Below are positions 6,061 through 52,803 of a stretch of DNA of 64,000 nt, piece after piece. The stretch covers positions 2,138,369-2,202,368 of the forward strand of contig OZ242022.1 in the NCBI GenBank assembly GCA_965204945.1, read 5' to 3'. Position 1 is the stretch's first letter. Every line of letters begins with the position of its first letter. This stretch comes from Limisphaerales bacterium. GTDB lineage: Bacteria > Verrucomicrobiota > Verrucomicrobiia > Limisphaerales > AAA164-E04. The translations under genes were made by a program, and so were the position numbers. The notes beneath the pieces were generated by a model that saw only the letters and a program-made list of their open reading frames with translations, was not told the DNA's origin and made no database searches.

Positions 6061-6942
6061 TCACTCACCTTCGGCCTTCTTCATTTCTGCCACTCGGCGT
6101 TCGGCTTCCTCCACTATCGCCTCGAATTCCTTCTCCATTTCTTCCTTTTGAGCCGGAGACAACTCTACTTCTACTTCTCCTACTAATCCCCAGTCAAACG
6201 GAGGCAACCCGAATTCCTCATGAATCAGACGAACTTCCTCTTCTAATTCCTCGTAATACAGGCGATTTCTCTCTTCCGCTTCCTCTTCAAGTGCCGCCAT
6301 TTTCGCATCCCACCGATCCAAAAACTCCCTGGATTGCCACTTTGTCTTAACCATCGTCATGGCTACGGTTTCCGCGCTTCGCCGGGTCACTTGCTTTTGC
6401 AAGTCCGACAATTCGCCTTCCACGCCGGAATTCGCCAGCAAATGCGCGTAAGCCTTCTCCACTTCGGCCTCAAACTCCTGCCTTTGCGACGGGTTCAAAG
6501 ACGCCTTGAATTCGTTCTTTTGTTGGAAGTAGCTTTCCAGTATTTTCCGATCCTTAGCGTCCGCATTCTCCAAAAGCCAAGCCTGCCACTCTGGATCGTT
6601 CATGGATACCAACTCTTCCACTTGGAGCGGTTTATGCGCCTGCGTTTCTTCTTCGACTTGAACTTCTTCCACTTGAGATTGCTCGACTTCCGGCTTCTTT
6701 GCCGAAGATTCCAAAAGGCGCAATTGATCTTTGAGTTCGCTGATCTCCCGCGACTGAATTTGGTTTTGAAGGGTCAAGAGATTAACTTTCTCGCGGTGAG
6801 ACTTCTTCAATTCCTCGTAGCGATCATTGCCAAACCAACCAAAGTATTCGCCGCAGATAATTAAGCCAAAAATCGCCATGATAGTCATCACAGCGTAACG
6901 CGCAACCGACTCATCGAAACCAAAAAATTTCTTTGCTTTCAT
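6061..6942 (-). CDS. membrane-anchored E/K-rich coiled-coil protein
   Basis: AAGGAG Shine-Dalgarno before the ATG at 6942. TM segment YAVMTIMAIFGLIICG followed by long heptad-like acidic helices. Last gene of cassette 1. Confidence 0.6.
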   Translation of the reverse strand: MKAKKFFGFDESVARYAVMTIMAIFGLIICGEYFGWFGNDRYEELKKSHREKVNLLTLQNQIQSREISELKDQLRLLESSAKKPEVEQSQVEEVQVEEETQAHKPLQVEELVSMNDPEWQAWLLENADAKDRKILESYFQQKNEFKASLNPSQRQEFEAEVEKAYAHLLANSGVEGELSDLQKQVTRRSAETVAMTMVKTKWQSREFLDRWDAKMAALEEEAEERNRLYYEELEEEVRLIHEEFGLPPFDWGLVGEVEVELSPAQKEEMEKEFEAIVEEAERRVAEMKKAEGE

Positions 6943-7220
6943 TCTGTTTGTCTCCTTTCTTTTTGCTTTAGTCTTGATTCTCTGATTCTTCATCCTCTGA
7001 GCCTGAATTTGCGAATTCAAGCAAGCACTCTCGCCAATCTTCCCAAATTTGAGACACAACGTCATTATGCCTCGCAATGTTTTCAATGCGACGCCTTTGA
7101 GCGTTTCCTTTAATCATTGAGATCTCTGTATTTTGGCTATCCCGGCTTCTTCGATATCTTCCATTGCTTCTTCATTTGCTTCTTCATTTGCTTTTGCTTT
7201 GGCGTCATTGCGACCAATTG

Positions 7221-8330
7221 TCAAAGTTCCGCCAAAAGACTTTGCCCAGGAACCATGTCTTCATCCTTCGGATCCATCAGGCCAAAAAGAAAAGTTTGAC
7301 CGGTGAATCCGTCAGGTGAAATCTCCGCAATCAAACGATCACGAATCCTTTCAGCAAGTTCCACACTTGGCCTTTCTTCCCCCGGCTCCGCTACCCACTC
7401 ACTCCGAACGCAATTGCGAACAACACGGAAATCCCTTTCTAGTTGCTCTTTCCAAGTGAGCCGACGGTTTTGGTTCGTTTTGGGATCCCATCGGGTTTGG
7501 ACAGGATGCAGTTCTTCTGGATCATGCTGGCTGGCCTGCTGGCTGGTTACAAAGTAGTTTTCCAAGCCGACCATGGTATGCGCAATCCGAATGGGATTGT
7601 CTCCGACGCCTTCTTCTTCAAAGATGCGGTAGGCTTGCTCGAACTCTGGAGAGTAGCGGTAGGCCTGTTTATAGAATCCGTCTAGCCGTTTGTGCCGCAT
7701 GATAATCCGCCGTTGCTCTTCGATTTCAGGGTCGCCGTTATGGTATCTCTGGTCCGCTAGTTCTATGGCGCGCCAGAGTCTTTCGTCTTCCGCTTGTTTT
7801 TCTTCCGTGGTGAGATCGTCTCTTGCCCAGACTTTTTCGGATTCCGCTTCGTAGGTTTCAAAGGCTTCATCGGTGTTTCTTTCCAACTCCTTTTTGTAGG
7901 CGCGGTACTTTTCATCACTGTGCGCGATGTTGTTTCCCGGGTCAAAGACGATGTCAGGGTGATACCCTCTCTGGAAAGGGAAGTTGTCGATCCATTCTTT
8001 TCGTTCTTCGTAAAGTTTGGCGTAGGCGGCCTTTGCTTCGGCTTCGTCTTGCTCTCTCCACCATTGTTCCGACCGTTCTTCATCGGTAAGAAGGCGACCG
8101 TATTTGCGCATCTCGGCTTTGTCCCGGGCGAGGTCTTCGGCGACGCTTTGGCGGGCCCATTCTTTCTCTTCGGGAGTCAAGTCATCCCCGTATTTCTTGA
8201 GGATGATGGCGTCCATTTCGTCAAGCGGCGCTGATGCCTTCTCTTCCGTTTTGGTTTGCTTTTGGGGAGCGAGGAGGACAACGGCAATCACAGCCAGAAT
8301 GCCTCCCGTGATAATGTAAACACTTCTCAT
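7221..8330 (-). CDS. N-terminally anchored protein of a window-specific paralogous family (WxDxFPF...EFEQ...IRDRLIxEI)
   Basis: AAGGAG Shine-Dalgarno. TM segment GGILAVIAVVLLA. Shares WIDNFPF, SPEFEQAYRIFEEEG, LTWKEQLER and AERIRDRLIAEISPDGF with 35894-36934 and with decayed copies at 24956-25649 and 37093-37911. Confidence 0.7.
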   Translation of the reverse strand: MRSVYIITGGILAVIAVVLLAPQKQTKTEEKASAPLDEMDAIILKKYGDDLTPEEKEWARQSVAEDLARDKAEMRKYGRLLTDEERSEQWWREQDEAEAKAAYAKLYEERKEWIDNFPFQRGYHPDIVFDPGNNIAHSDEKYRAYKKELERNTDEAFETYEAESEKVWARDDLTTEEKQAEDERLWRAIELADQRYHNGDPEIEEQRRIIMRHKRLDGFYKQAYRYSPEFEQAYRIFEEEGVGDNPIRIAHTMVGLENYFVTSQQASQHDPEELHPVQTRWDPKTNQNRRLTWKEQLERDFRVVRNCVRSEWVAEPGEERPSVELAERIRDRLIAEISPDGFTGQTFLFGLMDPKDEDMVPGQSLLAEL

Positions 8331-33275: not shown

Positions 33276-33973
33276 AAATCCTGTTCCTTTCCTTTTTGAC
33301 GGGGTTGCTTTCCTTAGATCCCGGCCAACAACTAGCGCAACACATGCGTCAAACCCAACTTCTCAGCGCCGAACCCCTCCAAGGTACTCTTCAAACCAAA
33401 CAACGCCGCGGCCAACGCATTACCCAAGCCATCTGGATACGCCACGCCAACGACAGCCCAACTCACAGCACGTTCACCGTCTCCAGCCCAAACAAAAACA
33501 TCGCCCGCCTCACCATCCTCCACAACCCTCAACAAACCCCTCGCTATTACTTATCCGACAACCCCGGCCAACTTGGACGGCCGCTCTCCCCTCAAGAAGC
33601 CATGTCGTCATTTGCCCACAGCGACTTTTGGCCTGCTGACTTAGGATTAGAATTCTTCTACTGGCCCCAACAAAAAATCCTTCCCAACGTCCGAATCAAA
33701 ATGCGCAAAGGCGTTGCCTGCCAAGTCCTAGAAAGCCGCCTCCAACCCGCCTCCAACTTCGGCTACAACCGCGTCCGCTCTTGGATTTCTCGGGAACATT
33801 TCGGGTTAGTCTACGCCGAAGCCTACAACGCCGAAGGCAAACGCGTCAAAACCTTCGAAGTTTCCGGCCTTCAAAAAATCAACGGCCAATGGAAAGTCAA
33901 AGAGCTTCGCATCCGCAACGAAATCACCAAATCCACCACCAAACTCATCCTACATAACCCCAAACTCAATTGA
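33272..33973 (+). CDS. LolA-like outer-membrane lipoprotein-sorting family protein (tentative)
   Basis: Signal peptide MKILFLSFLTGLL; ATGA overlap with the lon stop. The C-terminal pattern ..AEAYNAEGKRVKTFEVSGLQKINGQW.. recalls the LolA_like family. Confidence 0.5.
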   Translation: MKILFLSFLTGLLSLDPGQQLAQHMRQTQLLSAEPLQGTLQTKQRRGQRITQAIWIRHANDSPTHSTFTVSSPNKNIARLTILHNPQQTPRYYLSDNPGQLGRPLSPQEAMSSFAHSDFWPADLGLEFFYWPQQKILPNVRIKMRKGVACQVLESRLQPASNFGYNRVRSWISREHFGLVYAEAYNAEGKRVKTFEVSGLQKINGQWKVKELRIRNEITKSTTKLILHNPKLN

Positions 33974-38944: not shown

Positions 38945-39706
38945 CTACAAAGTGGCGGCTTGCCGTTGTTTCTTTTTCGTTATACGGCGATGAAAGAAAA
39001 CAAAACCCAAAGCAAACAAGCCAAACACAAGCGCATATTCCTCCGGCTCAGGCACCAAAGCCCTTGGCTCGCCGGACACTACCAAACGCAATCCGCCCGA
39101 ACTCGGAGCCCCCAAAATGCCGGCGGCCACAAAATTCGGGCCGACGTTATAAGTGTAAAAATACTCGCCCGCAGCGGTGAGCGTGAAGTTGCCAATGGAA
39201 TAGGACATAGTGCCTTGCCCGCTCCAAGAAACAGCGTCGCTGGCAGAATAACTCAGCGCCGAAGAGCCGGCCACGCGAATGCCCACATAATCAATGGAAA
39301 GATTGTTGAACAAATAGATGTCGCTGATGGATCGGGTGTTAGTTGCGGTGGCGGATTGGAAGGTGATTTGCGGATTCCAGTCTGAATTGGGATTGGCCGT
39401 CAAGGAATGATAGCCTGCTGTCGCGTAGCGGGAGGGAGCGCTGGCGGTGAGGAATTGCGTGCCGGAGGGAAGGCCTAAGCTATTGGTGTTTCCGGCGAAG
39501 GGACTAAGAAATCCTGTGTTATCGGTTCCTGTGGATCCAGCGGTGGCCGTGGGGATGCTGCCGGTGCTGAAGGGAGTGGAGGAGCCGGAGAAAGTCCAGA
39601 TGGTTGTGTTAGTGTCGCTTTGGAGAGGATTGATGGTGAGGACAAGTTGCGCCTGCCCCTGCTCCCCAGAAGCCAAAGAAAGCGCCGACACTACCAACGC
39701 CACCAA
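38945..39706 (-). CDS. PEP-CTERM sorting-domain surface protein; the annotated part starts at a TTG, and the probable native ATG at 39807 is out of frame
   Basis: C-terminus VPEPEEYALVFGLFALGFVFFHRR (PEP motif, TM helix, basic tail). S/T/G-rich beta-type body. Confidence 0.8.
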   Translation of the reverse strand: MVALVVSALSLASGEQGQAQLVLTINPLQSDTNTTIWTFSGSSTPFSTGSIPTATAGSTGTDNTGFLSPFAGNTNSLGLPSGTQFLTASAPSRYATAGYHSLTANPNSDWNPQITFQSATATNTRSISDIYLFNNLSIDYVGIRVAGSSALSYSASDAVSWSGQGTMSYSIGNFTLTAAGEYFYTYNVGPNFVAAGILGAPSSGGLRLVVSGEPRALVPEPEEYALVFGLFALGFVFFHRRITKKKQRQAATL

Positions 39707-39719
39707 AAGAGACCCATGC

Positions 39720-39782
39720 CCGCTTGCCGCTTGCCGCTTGCCGCTTGCCGCTTGCCGCTTGCCGCTTGCCGCTTGCCGCTTG
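39720..39782 (-). repeat. 9 perfect tandem heptanucleotide units: CAAGCGG on the coding strand, CCGCTTG on the + strand
   Basis: Counted base by base: nine perfect units spanning 39720-39782. Confidence 0.95.
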
Positions 39783-40096
39783 CATATTGTAAGGATAGCT
39801 TTTTCATCACTTCAAACATAAAAATAACTGCTCAATAACCGTTCTCTTGACTTTCCTTAATGAAAGTTTCTTTATTTATAGTCTCTTTTCCGCCTTGAGT
39901 CAACCCTCAAATCCAAAAAAGTGAAAAAGTGAAGAAAATGGAAAAAATTGGTGGGAGGCGAAAGAAATTCGCCCAAAAAGCACGCAATCTCCACTGCTCC
40001 ACTGCGGGAAGGAAGAGAGTTTTCATGGGCAGCGGCTTGCGGTTGGTCGAGTGGAGAGAGGGGAATCATTTTTGGCGGGGCGGGCGCAAACGATGT

Positions 40097-44723: not shown

Positions 44724-45629
44724 TCAATCGCCGGAACCATGCGCGTGTTCTTCGCCATCGTGTCGGCAAATCAGCATCGTAAACACAGAAGTTAGCAACG
44801 CAAACACCAACGCCTGAACCAGCCCCACCAACAACTCCAAAAAATAAAACGGCAACGCAAAAAGCCAGCCAAACCAAAAACCGCCCATGTGCAACATCGT
44901 CTCCAAAATGTTCTCCCCGGCAAAAATATTTCCATACAAACGGAACATCAAAGCCAACGGACGCACCAAAATCGACACAATCTCAACCACCCCCACAAAC
45001 AAAAAAATCGCCACTAAAAAAATGCCCAAAAAACTGGCGCCGTGCCCCTTCACCTGAAAAATATGCGCCGCCACGCCGCCCACGCCATTTGCTTGAAACG
45101 CCCACACAATCCAAAACGCAAAAAAGGCCAACGCCATCGCCGCCGTCATGTTCAAATCCGCATTCACCCCGCGCAACAACGGTTCCGTCAAGTGAAACTC
45201 CCCGCCAGAATCCTCGTTTCCCCAGCCAATCGTCCCCACGCCGGGCAACAGCCCAAACCAGTTGGAAAAGAGAATAAAAATGAAAACCGTCGCAAAAAAC
45301 CAAAAAGTCTTCTTCACCAGCTTTGCGCCCAAAATATCCTCAAAAAATCCGTAAAGCGACTCCACCAACCACTCCCAAAAATTCTGCCAACCCGACGGAA
45401 TCAGCTTGGCCTTGCGAACCGCCAACTGCGAAAACAAAATCAACAAGCCGGCCACAACCCAAGTAACCAACATCGAATTCGTCACAACCAGCGGACCCAG
45501 TTCAAACAAACGCACCGCATCCGGCGTCAAACCGTGCCTTGCCCCATCGCCATCCGCTTCCGCTCCCAGCCCCAAAACCGGAAATCCCAGCAGAACGAAA
45601 ACGACAATCCACAATCTCAACGCAAGCAT
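44724..45629 (-). CDS. atpB: F0 ATP synthase a subunit
   Basis: LFSNWFGLLPG and RLYGNIFAGE (essential Arg context). ATG at 45629 is preferred; the ORF is open to 45716. Confidence 0.9.
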   Translation of the reverse strand: MLALRLWIVVFVLLGFPVLGLGAEADGDGARHGLTPDAVRLFELGPLVVTNSMLVTWVVAGLLILFSQLAVRKAKLIPSGWQNFWEWLVESLYGFFEDILGAKLVKKTFWFFATVFIFILFSNWFGLLPGVGTIGWGNEDSGGEFHLTEPLLRGVNADLNMTAAMALAFFAFWIVWAFQANGVGGVAAHIFQVKGHGASFLGIFLVAIFLFVGVVEIVSILVRPLALMFRLYGNIFAGENILETMLHMGGFWFGWLFALPFYFLELLVGLVQALVFALLTSVFTMLICRHDGEEHAHGSGD

Positions 45630-46167
45630 CGCGCGATGTCGACAAACCTTTCGCAAAACAAAAGCCAAGCCGAGAAAAATCGCCTTCCCGGCCAAAGACG
45701 GAAAACACTGCCGCATCGGGAAAACCTTCGCAAGCCTTTTTTAAGATTTTTCCCAAAAATCCATCCCGCCAACATCTTCTCCCGCCTTGCCATTCGCCGC
45801 CGCTATTCTCCGTTGATCTCTTGCCTGCCTCTACCCTTGCCGCGCTTTTAGTCGATTGCGGCAACAATACCCCTCGTCAACGCATCCAATCTCTCCTCAA
45901 AACCCTATCGACCCAAAACCCCCGCAAGCCGCCCGCAAAATACGATTTCATTTCCGAAGTATGGAAAAAGAAAGAAAGGATATTCTCAATTCCTAATTCG
46001 TAATTGAAAATCCATCACTCCCTCGCTCCCGCCTCCCGCAAAATTTTGATAACTTCGTCATAATGTTCCCTTCTATGCTTTGCCGCCACCAATTCGCTAC
46101 CTTCTCCTCTCTTTACAATTCGGCGGCAAAATTTCTATTCTCAAAATTGAGATTTTGGCGAAGTTTC

Positions 46168-46578
46168 TCAAGAAACTGAATTCTTTCGGTTGGCGTAGCG
46201 TTTAGGCTTTACAACGGCAATCCCCGCTTTGCGCAACTTGGCGGAGGCTTCTTCCATTGTGCCGTTTCCCTTGACGCGGTTGCAGTGCGAGCAAAGCAGT
46301 TGTTTGTTGCCAATGCTTTCATCCAAGCCTTTTGACTTTGGCCAGATATGATCCACTTCAAATAAAGCGTAGGGAAGATGCAATCCGCACAAGTTGCAGT
46401 TCCCCTCTTGAACTCCGTAAAGGATTTGCTTGGCGTCTTTGTTGTCAATCGGTTTGCCGCGATCTGATCGGCTGGGATATCCGTGTTTGTCTACTTCCCT
46501 AATGATTGGCTTGCTTCCCACAGGCATTCCCGGTTTGCCCGCGCCGGTCATTCTTTGATTAATCTTTTTGATGGCCAT
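46168..46578 (-). CDS. HNH endonuclease domain protein, currently separated from the upstream methylase by a frameshift
   Basis: CNLCG...EVDHIWPKS...NKQLLCSHCNRVKG. The first ATG is at 46578. Confidence 0.8.
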   Translation of the reverse strand: MAIKKINQRMTGAGKPGMPVGSKPIIREVDKHGYPSRSDRGKPIDNKDAKQILYGVQEGNCNLCGLHLPYALFEVDHIWPKSKGLDESIGNKQLLCSHCNRVKGNGTMEEASAKLRKAGIAVVKPKRYANRKNSVS

Positions 46579-46588
46579 CCTGTCGATG

Positions 46589-47491
46589 TCAATCCCCACC
46601 CATCCCCACCCAATGACGGCTCATAATATCGGACTGAACCAAAGTCGTGGCGCATCCGCAAAACGGATCCAACACAATGTCGCCCGAATTGCTGCTCGCC
46701 TTGATAATCCGCTCCAACAACGCCTGCGGCTTCTGCGTTTTTTGTCCCACTCGTTCTTTTGAGTTAGGGCTAATAATCGGAATGTCCCAAGTACTCCCTA
46801 CAACAAGATGACTGCTTGGCGTCCGCTTGATTGGCTTTCCCGATGCGTCTTTCTTTACCACTGTTTTTCCGTCTTCATCCTTTGCGCTGACATATTGGGA
46901 TGGGTTTGGCGTTAGATTGGGGACAAGAATGGGGTTGATTTTGGTCTTTTTGCTTTTTGCGTAGAACAGGATAGTGTCGTGCAATTTTGGGAAAGATTTC
47001 TTTGATTTGACTGTCCACCGGTTGTAATGCCACACGATTTCATTTCTAAAATTGTCTTTGCCGAAGATGGCGTCCATTAGGAGGCGCAGGTAGGCGTTGG
47101 CGCTAGGGTCGCAGTGCAGGTAAATGCTGCCGGTTTCTTTGAGCAGGCGGCGGCATTCAATCAAACGAGTGGCCATCATGGTCAAGTAGGCCTGCATTCC
47201 TTTGCCGTGAACTTGCCCTGCGGCGCGAGCCACGTCGTAGGCTTTTTGGTTTTGGTGCGCCAGCAAGCCAAACTCCACTTCCCGCAGGTCGTCAAACGTC
47301 CAGAAGTCTTTGAAAGAAGTTCCGCTCAAAGACTGGTATAGCCTTTTGCTGTTGAACGGCGGGTCGAGGTATATCAGGTCAATCGTCCTCGAATTCATCG
47401 CCCGCATTACGTCGAGATTGTCTCCGATGAAGAGCGTTCTATTCTTCCAATTTACCGCTGTAGCAATGACTGCCTTTTCTAAATTACTCAT
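46589..47491 (-). CDS. beta-class N6A/N4C DNA methyltransferase
   Basis: Motif IV LDPPFNS near the N-terminus and motif I VLDPFCGCATT near the C-terminus. Ends abruptly inside the conserved W.GI(D/E) tail. Confidence 0.85.
   Translation of the reverse strand: MSNLEKAVIATAVNWKNRTLFIGDNLDVMRAMNSRTIDLIYLDPPFNSKRLYQSLSGTSFKDFWTFDDLREVEFGLLAHQNQKAYDVARAAGQVHGKGMQAYLTMMATRLIECRRLLKETGSIYLHCDPSANAYLRLLMDAIFGKDNFRNEIVWHYNRWTVKSKKSFPKLHDTILFYAKSKKTKINPILVPNLTPNPSQYVSAKDEDGKTVVKKDASGKPIKRTPSSHLVVGSTWDIPIISPNSKERVGQKTQKPQALLERIIKASSNSGDIVLDPFCGCATTLVQSDIMSRHWVGMGGD
46593..46612 (-). repeat. perfect 10-bp tandem duplication (TCCCCACCCA x2 on the + strand)
   Basis: Read base by base. Removing one copy joins the methylase frame to the HNH frame. 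Confidence 0.95.
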
Positions 47492-47572: not shown

Positions 47573-48751
47573 CTAAACCGTCGTCCACTGTTTTGTGTTT
47601 GCCGATTGTTCCACCGCTTCTAAAACTCGCTGATTCTTCAGGCCGTCTTCAAAAGTGGGTTGAACGGATTGGCCGGCGAGGACCGCGTTGACAAAGTCCG
47701 CCAAAGTGTGGACGAAGGTATGTTCGTAGCCCAAGATATGCCCCGGCGGCCACCACTGGCCGACGTAGGGATGCGTTCCTCCGGGCTGTGTGACGAGAAT
47801 GTCGCTGAATCCTTGGCGGTCTTCCGGCTGGCGGTTGTCAAAGAATTGGAGACGGTTCATGTCTTCAAAGTCGAAGAAAAGGGAGCCTTGGCTGCCGTTG
47901 ATCTCGATGGCGATGTTGTTTTTGCGGCCGAGCGCAAATCGCGTGGCCTCCAGATTCGCAAGGGCGCCGTTTGCAAACCGCCCGATGAACATAGCGGCGT
48001 CATCCACGGTCACTTCGCCCATTTTTGCCGCGCCCGCAGTGCCTCCCAGTCCGTCTCTTTTTTCTGCGGCGTCTTCAAGGGGCCTCTGTTTGATGAAAGT
48101 GTTCATCAAGCCGCAGACTTCGGCAAATTCGCCCACAAGGTATCGTCCCAAGTCGATAATGTGAGCGTTGATGTCTCCGTGCGCGCCGCTTCCGCTTACG
48201 CCTTTTTGAAGACGCCAAACGAGAGGAAAGTTTGGATCGACAATCCAATCTTGGGCGTAGCGGGCGCGGTAGTGGAAGAGTTTGCCTAAGGCGCCTTCTT
48301 CAATCATTTTCTTTGCGTGAGCGATGGCCGGGATGCGCCGATAGTTGTGGCAGACCATGTGAACGACGCCGTTCTCTTCGGCCGCGTCGAGCATTTCCCG
48401 GCATTGGCAGACGGTGAGCGCCAGCGGTTTCTCGCACAGCACGTGCTTGCCGGCGTTGGCGGCGGCAATGGCGATCTCGGCGTGCGAATCATTCGGCGTG
48501 TTGATGTCGATGATGTCGATTTCCGGATTCTCGATCACCTCTTTCCAATCTGTGGAAGCGTTTTTCCAGCCCAGTTCCCGGGATGCGGCCGCAACCCCTT
48601 CAGGATTGCGCCCGCAGATAGTGTGCATTTCGAGATCGGCCTCCAAAGGAAAGAAGCGCGGGGCTTGCCGCCAACCGTTGGAGTGGGCCTTCCCCATAAA
48701 CCGGTATCCGATCATCCCTACGCGAAGAGTTTTTTTCGTCATCGTCGTCAA
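47573..48751 (-). CDS. Gfo/Idh/MocA-family oxidoreductase
   Basis: N-terminal Rossmann LRVGMIGYRFMGKAHS and EKPLA. Confidence 0.85.
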   Translation of the reverse strand: MTTMTKKTLRVGMIGYRFMGKAHSNGWRQAPRFFPLEADLEMHTICGRNPEGVAAASRELGWKNASTDWKEVIENPEIDIIDINTPNDSHAEIAIAAANAGKHVLCEKPLALTVCQCREMLDAAEENGVVHMVCHNYRRIPAIAHAKKMIEEGALGKLFHYRARYAQDWIVDPNFPLVWRLQKGVSGSGAHGDINAHIIDLGRYLVGEFAEVCGLMNTFIKQRPLEDAAEKRDGLGGTAGAAKMGEVTVDDAAMFIGRFANGALANLEATRFALGRKNNIAIEINGSQGSLFFDFEDMNRLQFFDNRQPEDRQGFSDILVTQPGGTHPYVGQWWPPGHILGYEHTFVHTLADFVNAVLAGQSVQPTFEDGLKNQRVLEAVEQSANTKQWTTV

Positions 48752-51122: not shown

Positions 51123-52001
51123 ATGACGAAACTCATGCCAATAATTGCCGCCGGAGTGGTTGCCCTTTCCGCTGCATTCAATTGGGAAAGGATTCCCTTT
51201 GTCTGGATGGTCGGCTTTATTGTCTACGGACTCCTTCTCTATTTTCCCAAGAAACAAACGGAAACCGATGCCGAAAGACTGAATCAACTGGCCGAGCATT
51301 ATTATTTTGTCGGCTACATCGCCACCATCACCGGATTAGGCGGCGTTCTTTACAAGTTGGGCATGCGCGTCCAATCCAACCAAAATTTAGAAGAATTATT
51401 GACCCCAGATTTACTCAAACTAGGCGGTACCAGCGTTGGTTGCACTATCATCGGCTTGATCGGAATGAACGTTTTCCGCGCCAAAGCATTCAAACAAGAA
51501 CAAGAAGCCCGAAAACTCGACGCCGAACTCGACGAGATACGAACCCAAAACGTCGTTCACCAAATCGCCAAAAATTTTGAAAATTTTGAAAACCGAATGA
51601 AAGAACTCGAAAGCACCCGCATGGAAGAGTTTTCCCGCCTGATGGATGCTTCGGAACTTTCCAAAGTGCTGACCCAACTGGTCGGCGAAATTCAGGGCGG
51701 CGCCAAAGGTTTGGAAGACCTGCGCAAAGTTTCCAAATCAGCCTTCGGCGCAATCAGCCATTTAGAGAAAAAGTTGACCGGGATGGACGGCGCATTGCAA
51801 GGCATCGCCGAAGACTCTGACAAAGTGCAACAAAACTTCGCAACCATCGCCGATCAATCCGACCGCATAGAAACACTGGCAAGCCATTTAGAATCCGCCT
51901 CCAACTCGCTAAAAACACTGGGCGAAGACGGCAAATCCAGCGTCCAAGAACTGCGCGATCAATTCGATCTTCTCAGCGAAAATCATCAAACAAACAAATG
52001 A
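51123..52001 (+). CDS. 4-TM membrane protein with a ~170-aa coiled-coil tail
   Basis: Four hydrophobic segments (IIAAGVVALSAAF, VWMVGFIVYGLLLYF, FVGYIATITGLGGVLY, VGCTIIGLIGMNVF) followed by a heptad-rich tail. Confidence 0.6.
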   Translation: MTKLMPIIAAGVVALSAAFNWERIPFVWMVGFIVYGLLLYFPKKQTETDAERLNQLAEHYYFVGYIATITGLGGVLYKLGMRVQSNQNLEELLTPDLLKLGGTSVGCTIIGLIGMNVFRAKAFKQEQEARKLDAELDEIRTQNVVHQIAKNFENFENRMKELESTRMEEFSRLMDASELSKVLTQLVGEIQGGAKGLEDLRKVSKSAFGAISHLEKKLTGMDGALQGIAEDSDKVQQNFATIADQSDRIETLASHLESASNSLKTLGEDGKSSVQELRDQFDLLSENHQTNK

Positions 52002-52047: not shown

Positions 52048-52803
52048 ATGGACGACTTTATCGAAAATTTCAGCAACTTGTGCCACAAACTAAAAACATC
52101 CGCAAACAAAGAAATCGGCGACTTCTGCGCCGCCTTTGAAACCGCCTGCCACAAACTGAACAATTCCCTGCAAACCGCTGAAAACTTCGTTCAAAAACTA
52201 AGCGACGGCACCAACAAAACCGCCAACTTTTCCCAATCTTTGGAAAGTCTCACCGCCCAAACCGCCGAACACAACAAAGCCTTTGAATCCTTCAAAACCG
52301 ACCTGCAACAAACCGCAACCGCCTTGACCCAAAACATTCAAGAACTGCTCGCCCAATTCAAAACCCTCGGCGAACAAATCACCGACGCCTCCCAAAAAAC
52401 GCAGATTTGGAAAAACCAAACCAACGAAACCAGCCAAGAAATCCAGCACTTCGGCGAAAGCTTCCAAACCGCCTGCCAACAATTACAAGCATCTTCAGAG
52501 ACGGTAATTCGCTATGCGGACAGCCTGCAACAACATTTGAACGATCCAAACTGGAATTCGAAAATGGCCGGAAACTTTGTTGATGATCTTGCCCGGAGGA
52601 TAAATGACTTTGCCAAAAGAATAAGCGAAAGTTTGTCACCAATGTCCAACCTTTCCCAATCCTTGAAAGAAATGCGCGAAGGAACTGCTCGCATCAACGC
52701 AGAGTTGGAAAAACTGCGAAAAATGATCGAAGAAATCCCAGAACAAATTAAAGAACAAAAGGGCTTCTGGCAGGGATTGCGTCAAATGTTTAGCAGGAAA
52801 TGA
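52048..52803 (+). CDS. soluble all-helical coiled-coil protein
   Basis: Q/E/K/T-rich helical repeats and no TM segment. Lies 46 nt after the previous gene. Confidence 0.55.
   Translation: MDDFIENFSNLCHKLKTSANKEIGDFCAAFETACHKLNNSLQTAENFVQKLSDGTNKTANFSQSLESLTAQTAEHNKAFESFKTDLQQTATALTQNIQELLAQFKTLGEQITDASQKTQIWKNQTNETSQEIQHFGESFQTACQQLQASSETVIRYADSLQQHLNDPNWNSKMAGNFVDDLARRINDFAKRISESLSPMSNLSQSLKEMREGTARINAELEKLRKMIEEIPEQIKEQKGFWQGLRQMFSRK

Follow-up and report, generated by a model that had tools for sequence, protein, structure and literature searches.

A 10-nt tandem duplication splits a methyltransferase-HNH fusion gene of a Limisphaerales bacterium, most likely as a recent loss-of-function mutation

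Two overlapping open reading frames (ORFs) on the minus strand of the window, by which we mean the whole 64-kb stretch of DNA that was analysed, encode a DNA methyltransferase (MTase) and an HNH nuclease domain, which in this allele do not belong to one polypeptide. The two frames, the repeat at which they part and the genes on either side are as follows.

47573..48751, minus strand: Gfo/Idh/MocA oxidoreductase, the upstream neighbour (housekeeping)
46589..47491, minus strand: truncated beta-class DNA methyltransferase ORF (DPPF, probably N6-adenine) of 300 aa, ending ..SRHWVGMGGD-TGA, without the beta2 Asp298 and the C-terminal helix
46589..46620, minus strand: 32-nt overlap of the methylase and HNH frames, spanning the stretch between the HNH frame's upstream stop and the methylase TGA
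46592..46612, minus strand: perfect 10-nt tandem duplication, on the coding strand TGGGTGGGGA twice plus one extra base; single copy in allelic contigs
46168..46620, minus strand: open frame that contains the displaced linker and an HNH nuclease domain with the complete CxxC..DH..N..CxxC-N set, stop at 46168
44724..45716, minus strand: atpB, the downstream neighbour and first gene of the ATP synthase operon

Flanked by the oxidoreductase and atpB, the broken gene is a solitary insert between housekeeping genes. The 300-aa ORF matched the Pfam family N6_N4_Mtase (PF01555) with E = 2.4e-44 and 152 bits (cut-off 26.7), and the coverage of only profile positions 1-208 of 221 indicates that the C-terminal tail of the methylase has been cut. 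The second ORF, which reads ..WVGIDIDRMAIKKINQR.. and then EVDHIWPKS..CSHCNRVKG, matched Pfam HNH (PF01844, beta-beta-alpha-Me) with E = 9e-11. Both the ORFs and the Pfam matches bear out the initial annotation of this DNA, which had the methylase frame ending in ..RHWVGMGGD-TGA and the next frame continuing into the HNH domain. Candidate starts for the HNH frame are GTG 46599, ATG 46578 and ATG 46551; the second of these, an internal ATG that had also been pointed out before, is preceded 11 nt upstream by the methylase TGA, and the third gives a 127-aa product that is on record as P0123 from this genome. No convincing Shine-Dalgarno sequence or other ribosome-binding site was seen on inspection before any of the three starts, and the internal Met codons of the HNH frame are not conserved across the family in a 43-member alignment.

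A full-length fusion could in principle still be made from the duplicated allele by programmed +1 ribosomal frameshifting or transcriptional slippage, and inspection of the sequence revealed a G-rich, Shine-Dalgarno-like GGUGGGG directly before GAU-UGA that superficially resembles the prfB +1 site. Any read-through or frameshift would need to fall within the overlap of the two frames. However, the P-site codon GAU could not pair again after a +1 shift (to AUU), only 32 nt of overlap are available, with no slippery site seen in them by inspection, the product would gain an insertion of 3-4 residues in strand beta2, and the ancestral allele described below requires no frameshift. Programmed +1 frameshifting was rejected on the first and last of these grounds, and we consider it extremely improbable that either process restores the fusion.

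On the plus strand, the two copies of the duplication at 46593-46602 and 46603-46612 each read TCCCCACCCA, and Tandem Repeats Finder reported 46592-46612 with a period of 10, 2.1 copies and a 100% match, in agreement with the perfect 10-bp tandem duplication first described at 46593-46612. It is the sole perfect 10-nt tandem duplicate within the 64-kb window, for which first-order Markov simulations of the window give a chance expectation of about 0.03 per 64 kb. A replication-slippage-type event within the W-V-G-I-D codons would explain both the duplication and the shift of the frame, and slippage is its probable origin. Over the whole window, 11 perfect tandem duplications with units of 8-12 nt were observed and about 1.8 were expected from first-order Markov simulations, and mutations of this type may be common in this genome. 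An 11-nt tandem repeat at 33736 was considered as a second frameshifting duplication and rejected, as the ORF reads through the repeat.

When one repeat copy is skipped in translation, the two frames join into a single MTase-HNH protein of 437 aa. A database search with this repaired protein gave a cluster (90% identity or more) of four different 437-aa proteins together with the 300-aa and 127-aa pieces from the window, and the protein P0001 differs from the repaired one at two residues (R35G and V161I). Contigs encoding the intact 437-aa protein were found in the following assemblies.

L009, L010 (plus one similar place), L011, L119 and L120: environmental metagenome assemblies
L121: Logan assembly

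Alleles with ..RHWVGIDIDRMAIKK.. and an intact 437-aa ORF are thus present in 7 metagenome and Logan contigs, which derive from six or more samples. In DNA alignments, contigs L009-L012 are 96-98.5% identical to the window across the gene. The additional 10-nt copy is the only indel that separates the window's gene from four allelic contigs with the intact ORF, and three more contigs encode intact 437-aa products; at the junction, the intact L009, L010 and L011 differ from the window solely by the absence of exactly 10 nt. The longer contigs L010, L011 and L012 share with the window the gene order Gfo/Idh/MocA oxidoreductase, MTase-HNH, atpB. The copy number of the repeat is one in eight other alleles and two in the window, and no allele has three or more. 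Beyond the species, all of the 120 best database matches (40-52% identity) carry both Pfam domains in one protein of 397-484 aa, and intact fusions account for 68 of the best 80 loci in a species-representative genome collection, the others being broken by stops or frameshifts (7/80) or consisting of the MTase only (5/80). Since the orthologues are not consistently split at the junction, the single MTase-HNH polypeptide that the initial annotation had proposed as the ancestor stands: the seven contigs of the same species carry a 437-aa ORF without the 10 nt, and the fused orthologues that it had suggested looking for turned out to be the overwhelming majority of the family. The duplication is the derived state, and its intact single-ORF ancestor is observed directly. 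With at least seven related environmental contigs keeping the gene intact, the split is most likely a recent loss of the gene of an ordinary kind rather than a novel two-gene system.

The split allele occurs in one assembly only and every independent contig is intact at the junction, as would also be seen if the real gene encoded an intact 437-aa protein and the extra 10 nt had come from consensus building. The assembly, with 2 contigs and 92.5% completeness, suggests a long-read metagenome-assembled genome (MAG), and another gene broken by a 1-nt homopolymer indel at 51979 could hint at consensus errors. The latter is a 1-nt insertion in an A-run relative to L010, which splits the gene of a 575-aa coiled-coil membrane protein (4642-6369 in L010) into the ORFs 51123-52001 and 52048-52803. 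Long-read and polishing errors are, however, mostly 1-nt indels in homopolymers, for which a clean and perfect 10-nt duplication is atypical, the assembly around the locus is sound, with adjacent housekeeping genes that are intact across 17.5 kb and of the same length as in L010, and genuine frameshifts are frequent among the defence genes of this genome. On balance, an assembly or polishing artefact appears quite unlikely.

In the intact protein, DPPF lies at residues 43-46, N-terminal of the AdoMet motif DPFCGCATT at 275-283, with a variable region at 180-245 between the two (the beta permutation), and PADLOC gave a match of the intact form to MTase_II at 1.5e-72. The DPPF motif is the basis for assignment as an N6-adenine methyltransferase, and the intact methylase domain is probably a beta-class, N6-adenine enzyme. 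The solved structures closest to it are a Mod-type methylase (6K0W), CcrM, M.MboIIA, M.BceJIV, M.RsrI and EcoP15I Mod, and the HNH half scored best against Cas9/IscB-type HNH models. A Foldseek search of the PDB returned methylases only, with no fused MTase-HNH homologue, and no characterised MTase-HNH fusion of this type and no biochemical study of one were found in the literature. In the AlphaFold2 model of the intact allele (pLDDT 82, pTM 0.81), residues 293-298 (HWVGID) form a strand and residues 302-311 a helix, the linker at about 312-350 is of low confidence and the HNH domain is confident. The chain would run from an N-terminal beta-class methyltransferase (DPPF, a central target-recognition region and a C-terminal AdoMet-binding half) through a flexible linker to a C-terminal zinc-bound HNH domain, and the recognition domain of the methylase would target both methylation and cleavage. 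It is mainly in this central recognition region that the family members in the 43-member alignment differ.

The residues hit by the duplication are conserved throughout the family. None of the 43 members, at about 45% identity, deviates at R292, W294, G296 or D298, and the same holds for the HNH residues D377, H378, N392, N401 and C362/365/397/400, which are all present in the window. In the window allele, I297-D298 is replaced by M-G and the chain ends two residues later (WVGMGGD*) without helix 302-311, whereas the beta2-terminal acidic residue and the C-terminal helix that follows it are present in intact alleles. D298 aligns with Glu216 of the Helicobacter methylase M1.HpyAVI; this residue closes strand beta2 and contacts the AdoMet ribose hydroxyls by hydrogen bonds, and in the E216A variant both AdoMet binding and methyl transfer are abolished (PMC5173035). 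Given the loss of the AdoMet-ribose-binding Asp298 and of the helix behind it, the methylase half is probably also inactive, a reading in which we are rather confident; the new C-terminus ..GMGGD has an Asp two residues later, which could conceivably leave some residual AdoMet binding. The nuclease domain would be uncoupled both from the translation start and from the recognition domain, and the HNH fragment presumably lacks expression or targeting.

Two outcomes had been put forward in the initial annotation, namely a nuclease silenced with methylation kept, or a newly created two-gene system. The first found no support, as the invariant Asp298 is replaced and helix 302-311 deleted, and no positive evidence emerged for the second, as the split is private to this genome, the Met codons are unconserved and the HNH fragment lacks a recognition domain. 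A functional split would combine an active truncated methylase with an HNH protein made by re-initiation from ATG 46578 or 46551, either as a two-gene restriction-modification (R-M) system or as an orphan methylase with a free nuclease. The short distance between the methylase TGA and ATG 46578, the 127-aa HNH ORF from ATG 46551 on record and the complete set of catalytic and zinc residues in the HNH domain would all be compatible with this, and the MTase-only loci (5 of the 80 related ones) indicate that the methylase module can exist without the HNH. Against it stand the loss of the terminal helix and of an acidic residue whose equivalent substitution in M1.HpyAVI gives a dead enzyme, the lack on inspection of a convincing Shine-Dalgarno sequence before either ATG, and the absence of the arrangement from any second genome, which together with the unconserved Met codons and the untargeted HNH fragment make a functional split very unlikely.

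The break is young. The alleles differ from the window gene at 5-14 synonymous and 2-6 non-synonymous codons, and the three closest, with the 10 nt ignored, at 6-9 synonymous and 2 non-synonymous codons, with no non-synonymous difference in the HNH half. Pooled over all allele pairs, the ratio of synonymous to non-synonymous differences is 323:122 for the methylase part and 104:83 for the linker/HNH part. This synonymous excess indicates that purifying selection acted on both halves until a very short time ago, and no decay is apparent after the frameshift. The 300-aa and 127-aa split products have been recorded from no other genome, and a scan of JGI metagenome contigs did not find the junction with a gap of 0-30 nt. 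Contig L012, from a sister strain, carries at 6351-7838 the same MTase-HNH gene with an independent 1-nt deletion at codon 64 (CTTCTGGAC -> CTTC-GGAC), which removes the N-terminus including DPPF and leaves a product of 366 aa that the gene caller starts from an internal Met. This independent frameshift in L012, together with the duplication in the window, indicates that the gene has been knocked out repeatedly in the population. The duplication is likely to be a loss-of-function mutation of an MTase-HNH fusion gene that arose very recently and is private to this strain, with a null allele for both activities as the most likely outcome.

Breakage of such genes is not restricted to this locus. 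The genome (4.32 Mb in 2 contigs) contains 52 loci similar to the methylase (tblastn, E < 1e-5) and nine MTase-HNH fusions, five of them intact and four, including that of the window, frameshifted. In the other frameshifted paralogues (p3, p4 and p8), the break is due to non-repeat indels elsewhere in the gene. With four of nine paralogues frameshifted and 7 of 80 loci broken, frequent inactivation appears to be normal for the MTase-HNH family, and the event in the window would be one of many losses in a fast-turnover defence-gene family. A common break mechanism was considered and rejected: none of p3, p4, p8 and m1163 has a tandem duplication, and their breaks lie at differing sites that are non-repeat or resemble homopolymers. 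The idea that other genomes break preferentially at this very position was rejected as well, for the frameshift of the relative L098 lies in a C-run five codons further downstream, which looks coincidental. Two pairs of MTase-HNH paralogues, with one member of each frameshifted, are 96-98% identical at both ends and unrelated over the central ~220-340 nt, the target-recognition region, which suggests recombinational swapping of this region.

G000 C1:670650-672100 and C1:1894771-1896036: first paralogue pair
G000 C1:3225100-3226720 and C1:3343673-3345178: second paralogue pair

Many of the methylase loci of this genome encode proteins of 490-560 aa with a shared C-terminal module (..DGGIDG..VQVKGG..), and examples of methylase loci are given below.

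G000 C1:185792-187273
G000 C1:235188-236699
G000 C1:1284005-1285645
G000 C1:1740662-1742191
G000 C1:2207071-2208564

One scanned representative of the 490-560-aa proteins gave a borderline match to Pfam Mrr_cat (E = 2.5e-4, 21.6 bits against a cut-off of 21), and methylase-Mrr_cat would be a second methylase-nuclease fusion architecture beside MTase-HNH. The methylase scaffold is alternatively fused to the Mrr_cat-like restriction-nuclease domain in this genome and in sister species, and the methylase expansion is found in some but not all species of the genus. In the two closest species, represented by L033 (G005:C1:2103900-2109500) and L034 (G009:C1:798300-804000), the Gfo/Idh/MocA gene is 96% identical and has different methylases downstream, namely N6_N4 methylases of 557 and 558 aa with a C-terminal 190 aa lacking domain assignment. 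The same site also holds a 518-aa methylase-Mrr_cat fusion in G009 and an AAA_16 ATPase gene in G005, and it looks like a defence-gene insertion hot spot.

Outside the genus, the best 80 loci of the fused family (L039-L118) come nearly all from MAGs, and marine sponge microbiomes are the typical setting of many of their lineages (Poribacteria, Dehalococcoidia/Chloroflexota, Poriferihabitaceae, Porisulfidus, Binatia and Caldilineaceae). The spread over phyla at 35-49% identity suggests horizontal transfer. The fused architecture was found in none of 50,697 phage records and none of 72,556 plasmid records, in which the matches cover the methylase part only. The family is large, widespread and occurs almost only in uncultured bacteria, and it is biochemically uncharacterised in the literature found.

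Perfect tandem repeats can be deleted by slippage, and the two-copy allele might be the OFF state of a reversible contingency switch in a phase-variable R-M or phasevarion methylase, from which slipped-strand mispairing would return the one-copy ON state. The perfect repeat in the window could revert in this way, the HNH half has not decayed, and the excess of short perfect tandem duplications in the window and the use of repeat-based switches elsewhere in the lineage, such as a 9-copy heptamer before a PEP-CTERM gene, would also be in keeping with a switch. That heptamer tract comprises nine perfect 7-nt copies (CCGCTTG, plus strand) at 39720-39783, which either immediately precede the minus-strand PEP-CTERM ORF 38945-39706 or lie at its beginning. 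However, phase-variable R-M genes use long tracts of homopolymers or of 2-7-nt units with variable copy number, whereas there are only two copies here, eight of eight other alleles are single-copy with none at three or more, and L012 as well as the paralogues p3, p4 and p8 are broken elsewhere by non-repeat indels. Within the family the site is no repeat tract at all and merely codes for the conserved W-V-G-I-D. A switch is therefore an unlikely explanation, and a recent loss of function in one strain remains the preferred one.

For annotation, the two ORFs would be best treated as one frameshifted MTase-HNH pseudogene rather than as an orphan methylase and an HNH gene, and methylase activity of the split allele should not be assumed when methylomes are interpreted. 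The natural pair of an intact allele and one broken by 10 nt offers a ready-made control for single-chain R-M function. Together with the insight that the methylase-nuclease family of this lineage is massively expanded and recombines, it is the most useful by-product of the analysis.

The architecture of the intact fusion, a solitary gene with a variable recognition region whose scaffold is alternatively fused to an Mrr_cat-like domain, points most likely to a putative self-contained, Type IIC-like R-M enzyme. For a sequence-specific cleavage that self-methylation would block, the alternative Mrr_cat-like fusion is the one piece of indirect support. A broader reading, in which beta-class methylases with a C-terminal HNH or Mrr_cat-like PD-(D/E)XK domain would make up a class of self-contained, single-chain R-M enzymes that has yet to be characterised and the duplication would be a snapshot, possibly revertible, of their ON/OFF turnover, is tentative and in our view rather doubtful as a whole. 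In its favour are the roughly 50 methylase loci of this 4.3-Mb genome, nine of them HNH fusions, and a family that seems to diversify through exchange of the central recognition region among paralogues and to turn over through frequent frameshifts. Helicobacter, Neisseria and Haemophilus also have R-M genes that are phase-variable or inactivated by frameshift, and there too a short insertion within a repeat turns the gene off; their genomes likewise have many R-M paralogues of which a sizeable fraction is broken; their switches are variable-copy long tracts, whereas here there is one extra 10-nt unit and no copy-number series among the alleles. The HNH half shares with Cas9/IscB HNH domains the D-H..N..N catalytic pattern with two CxxC pairs, but the likeness is confined to a domain of about 80 residues, with no RuvC, guide RNA or CRISPR context at this locus.

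The methylase half has the same fold as stand-alone beta-class methyltransferases and Type III Mod subunits (M.MboIIA, M.RsrI, CcrM, M1.HpyAVI and EcoP15I Mod), which provide its best sequence and structure matches and have the same order of motifs (DPPF, TRD, FxGxG-like, beta2 acidic residue). Those enzymes lack an HNH extension, and all of them have the beta2 acidic residue and terminal helix that are missing from the window allele. The Type IIC single-chain R-M enzymes (Type IIG/IIL MmeI, BpuSI) differ in layout, as MmeI and BpuSI consist of an N-terminal PD-(D/E)XK nuclease, a gamma-class methylase and a C-terminal recognition domain, whereas the intact allele has a beta-class methylase with a central recognition region followed by a C-terminal HNH, for which cleavage is predicted. 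Like the intact allele, they unite methyltransferase, recognition and nuclease in one chain encoded by a solitary gene that needs no partner, and the diversity of recognition domains among the paralogues implies many specificities, as in Type IIC.
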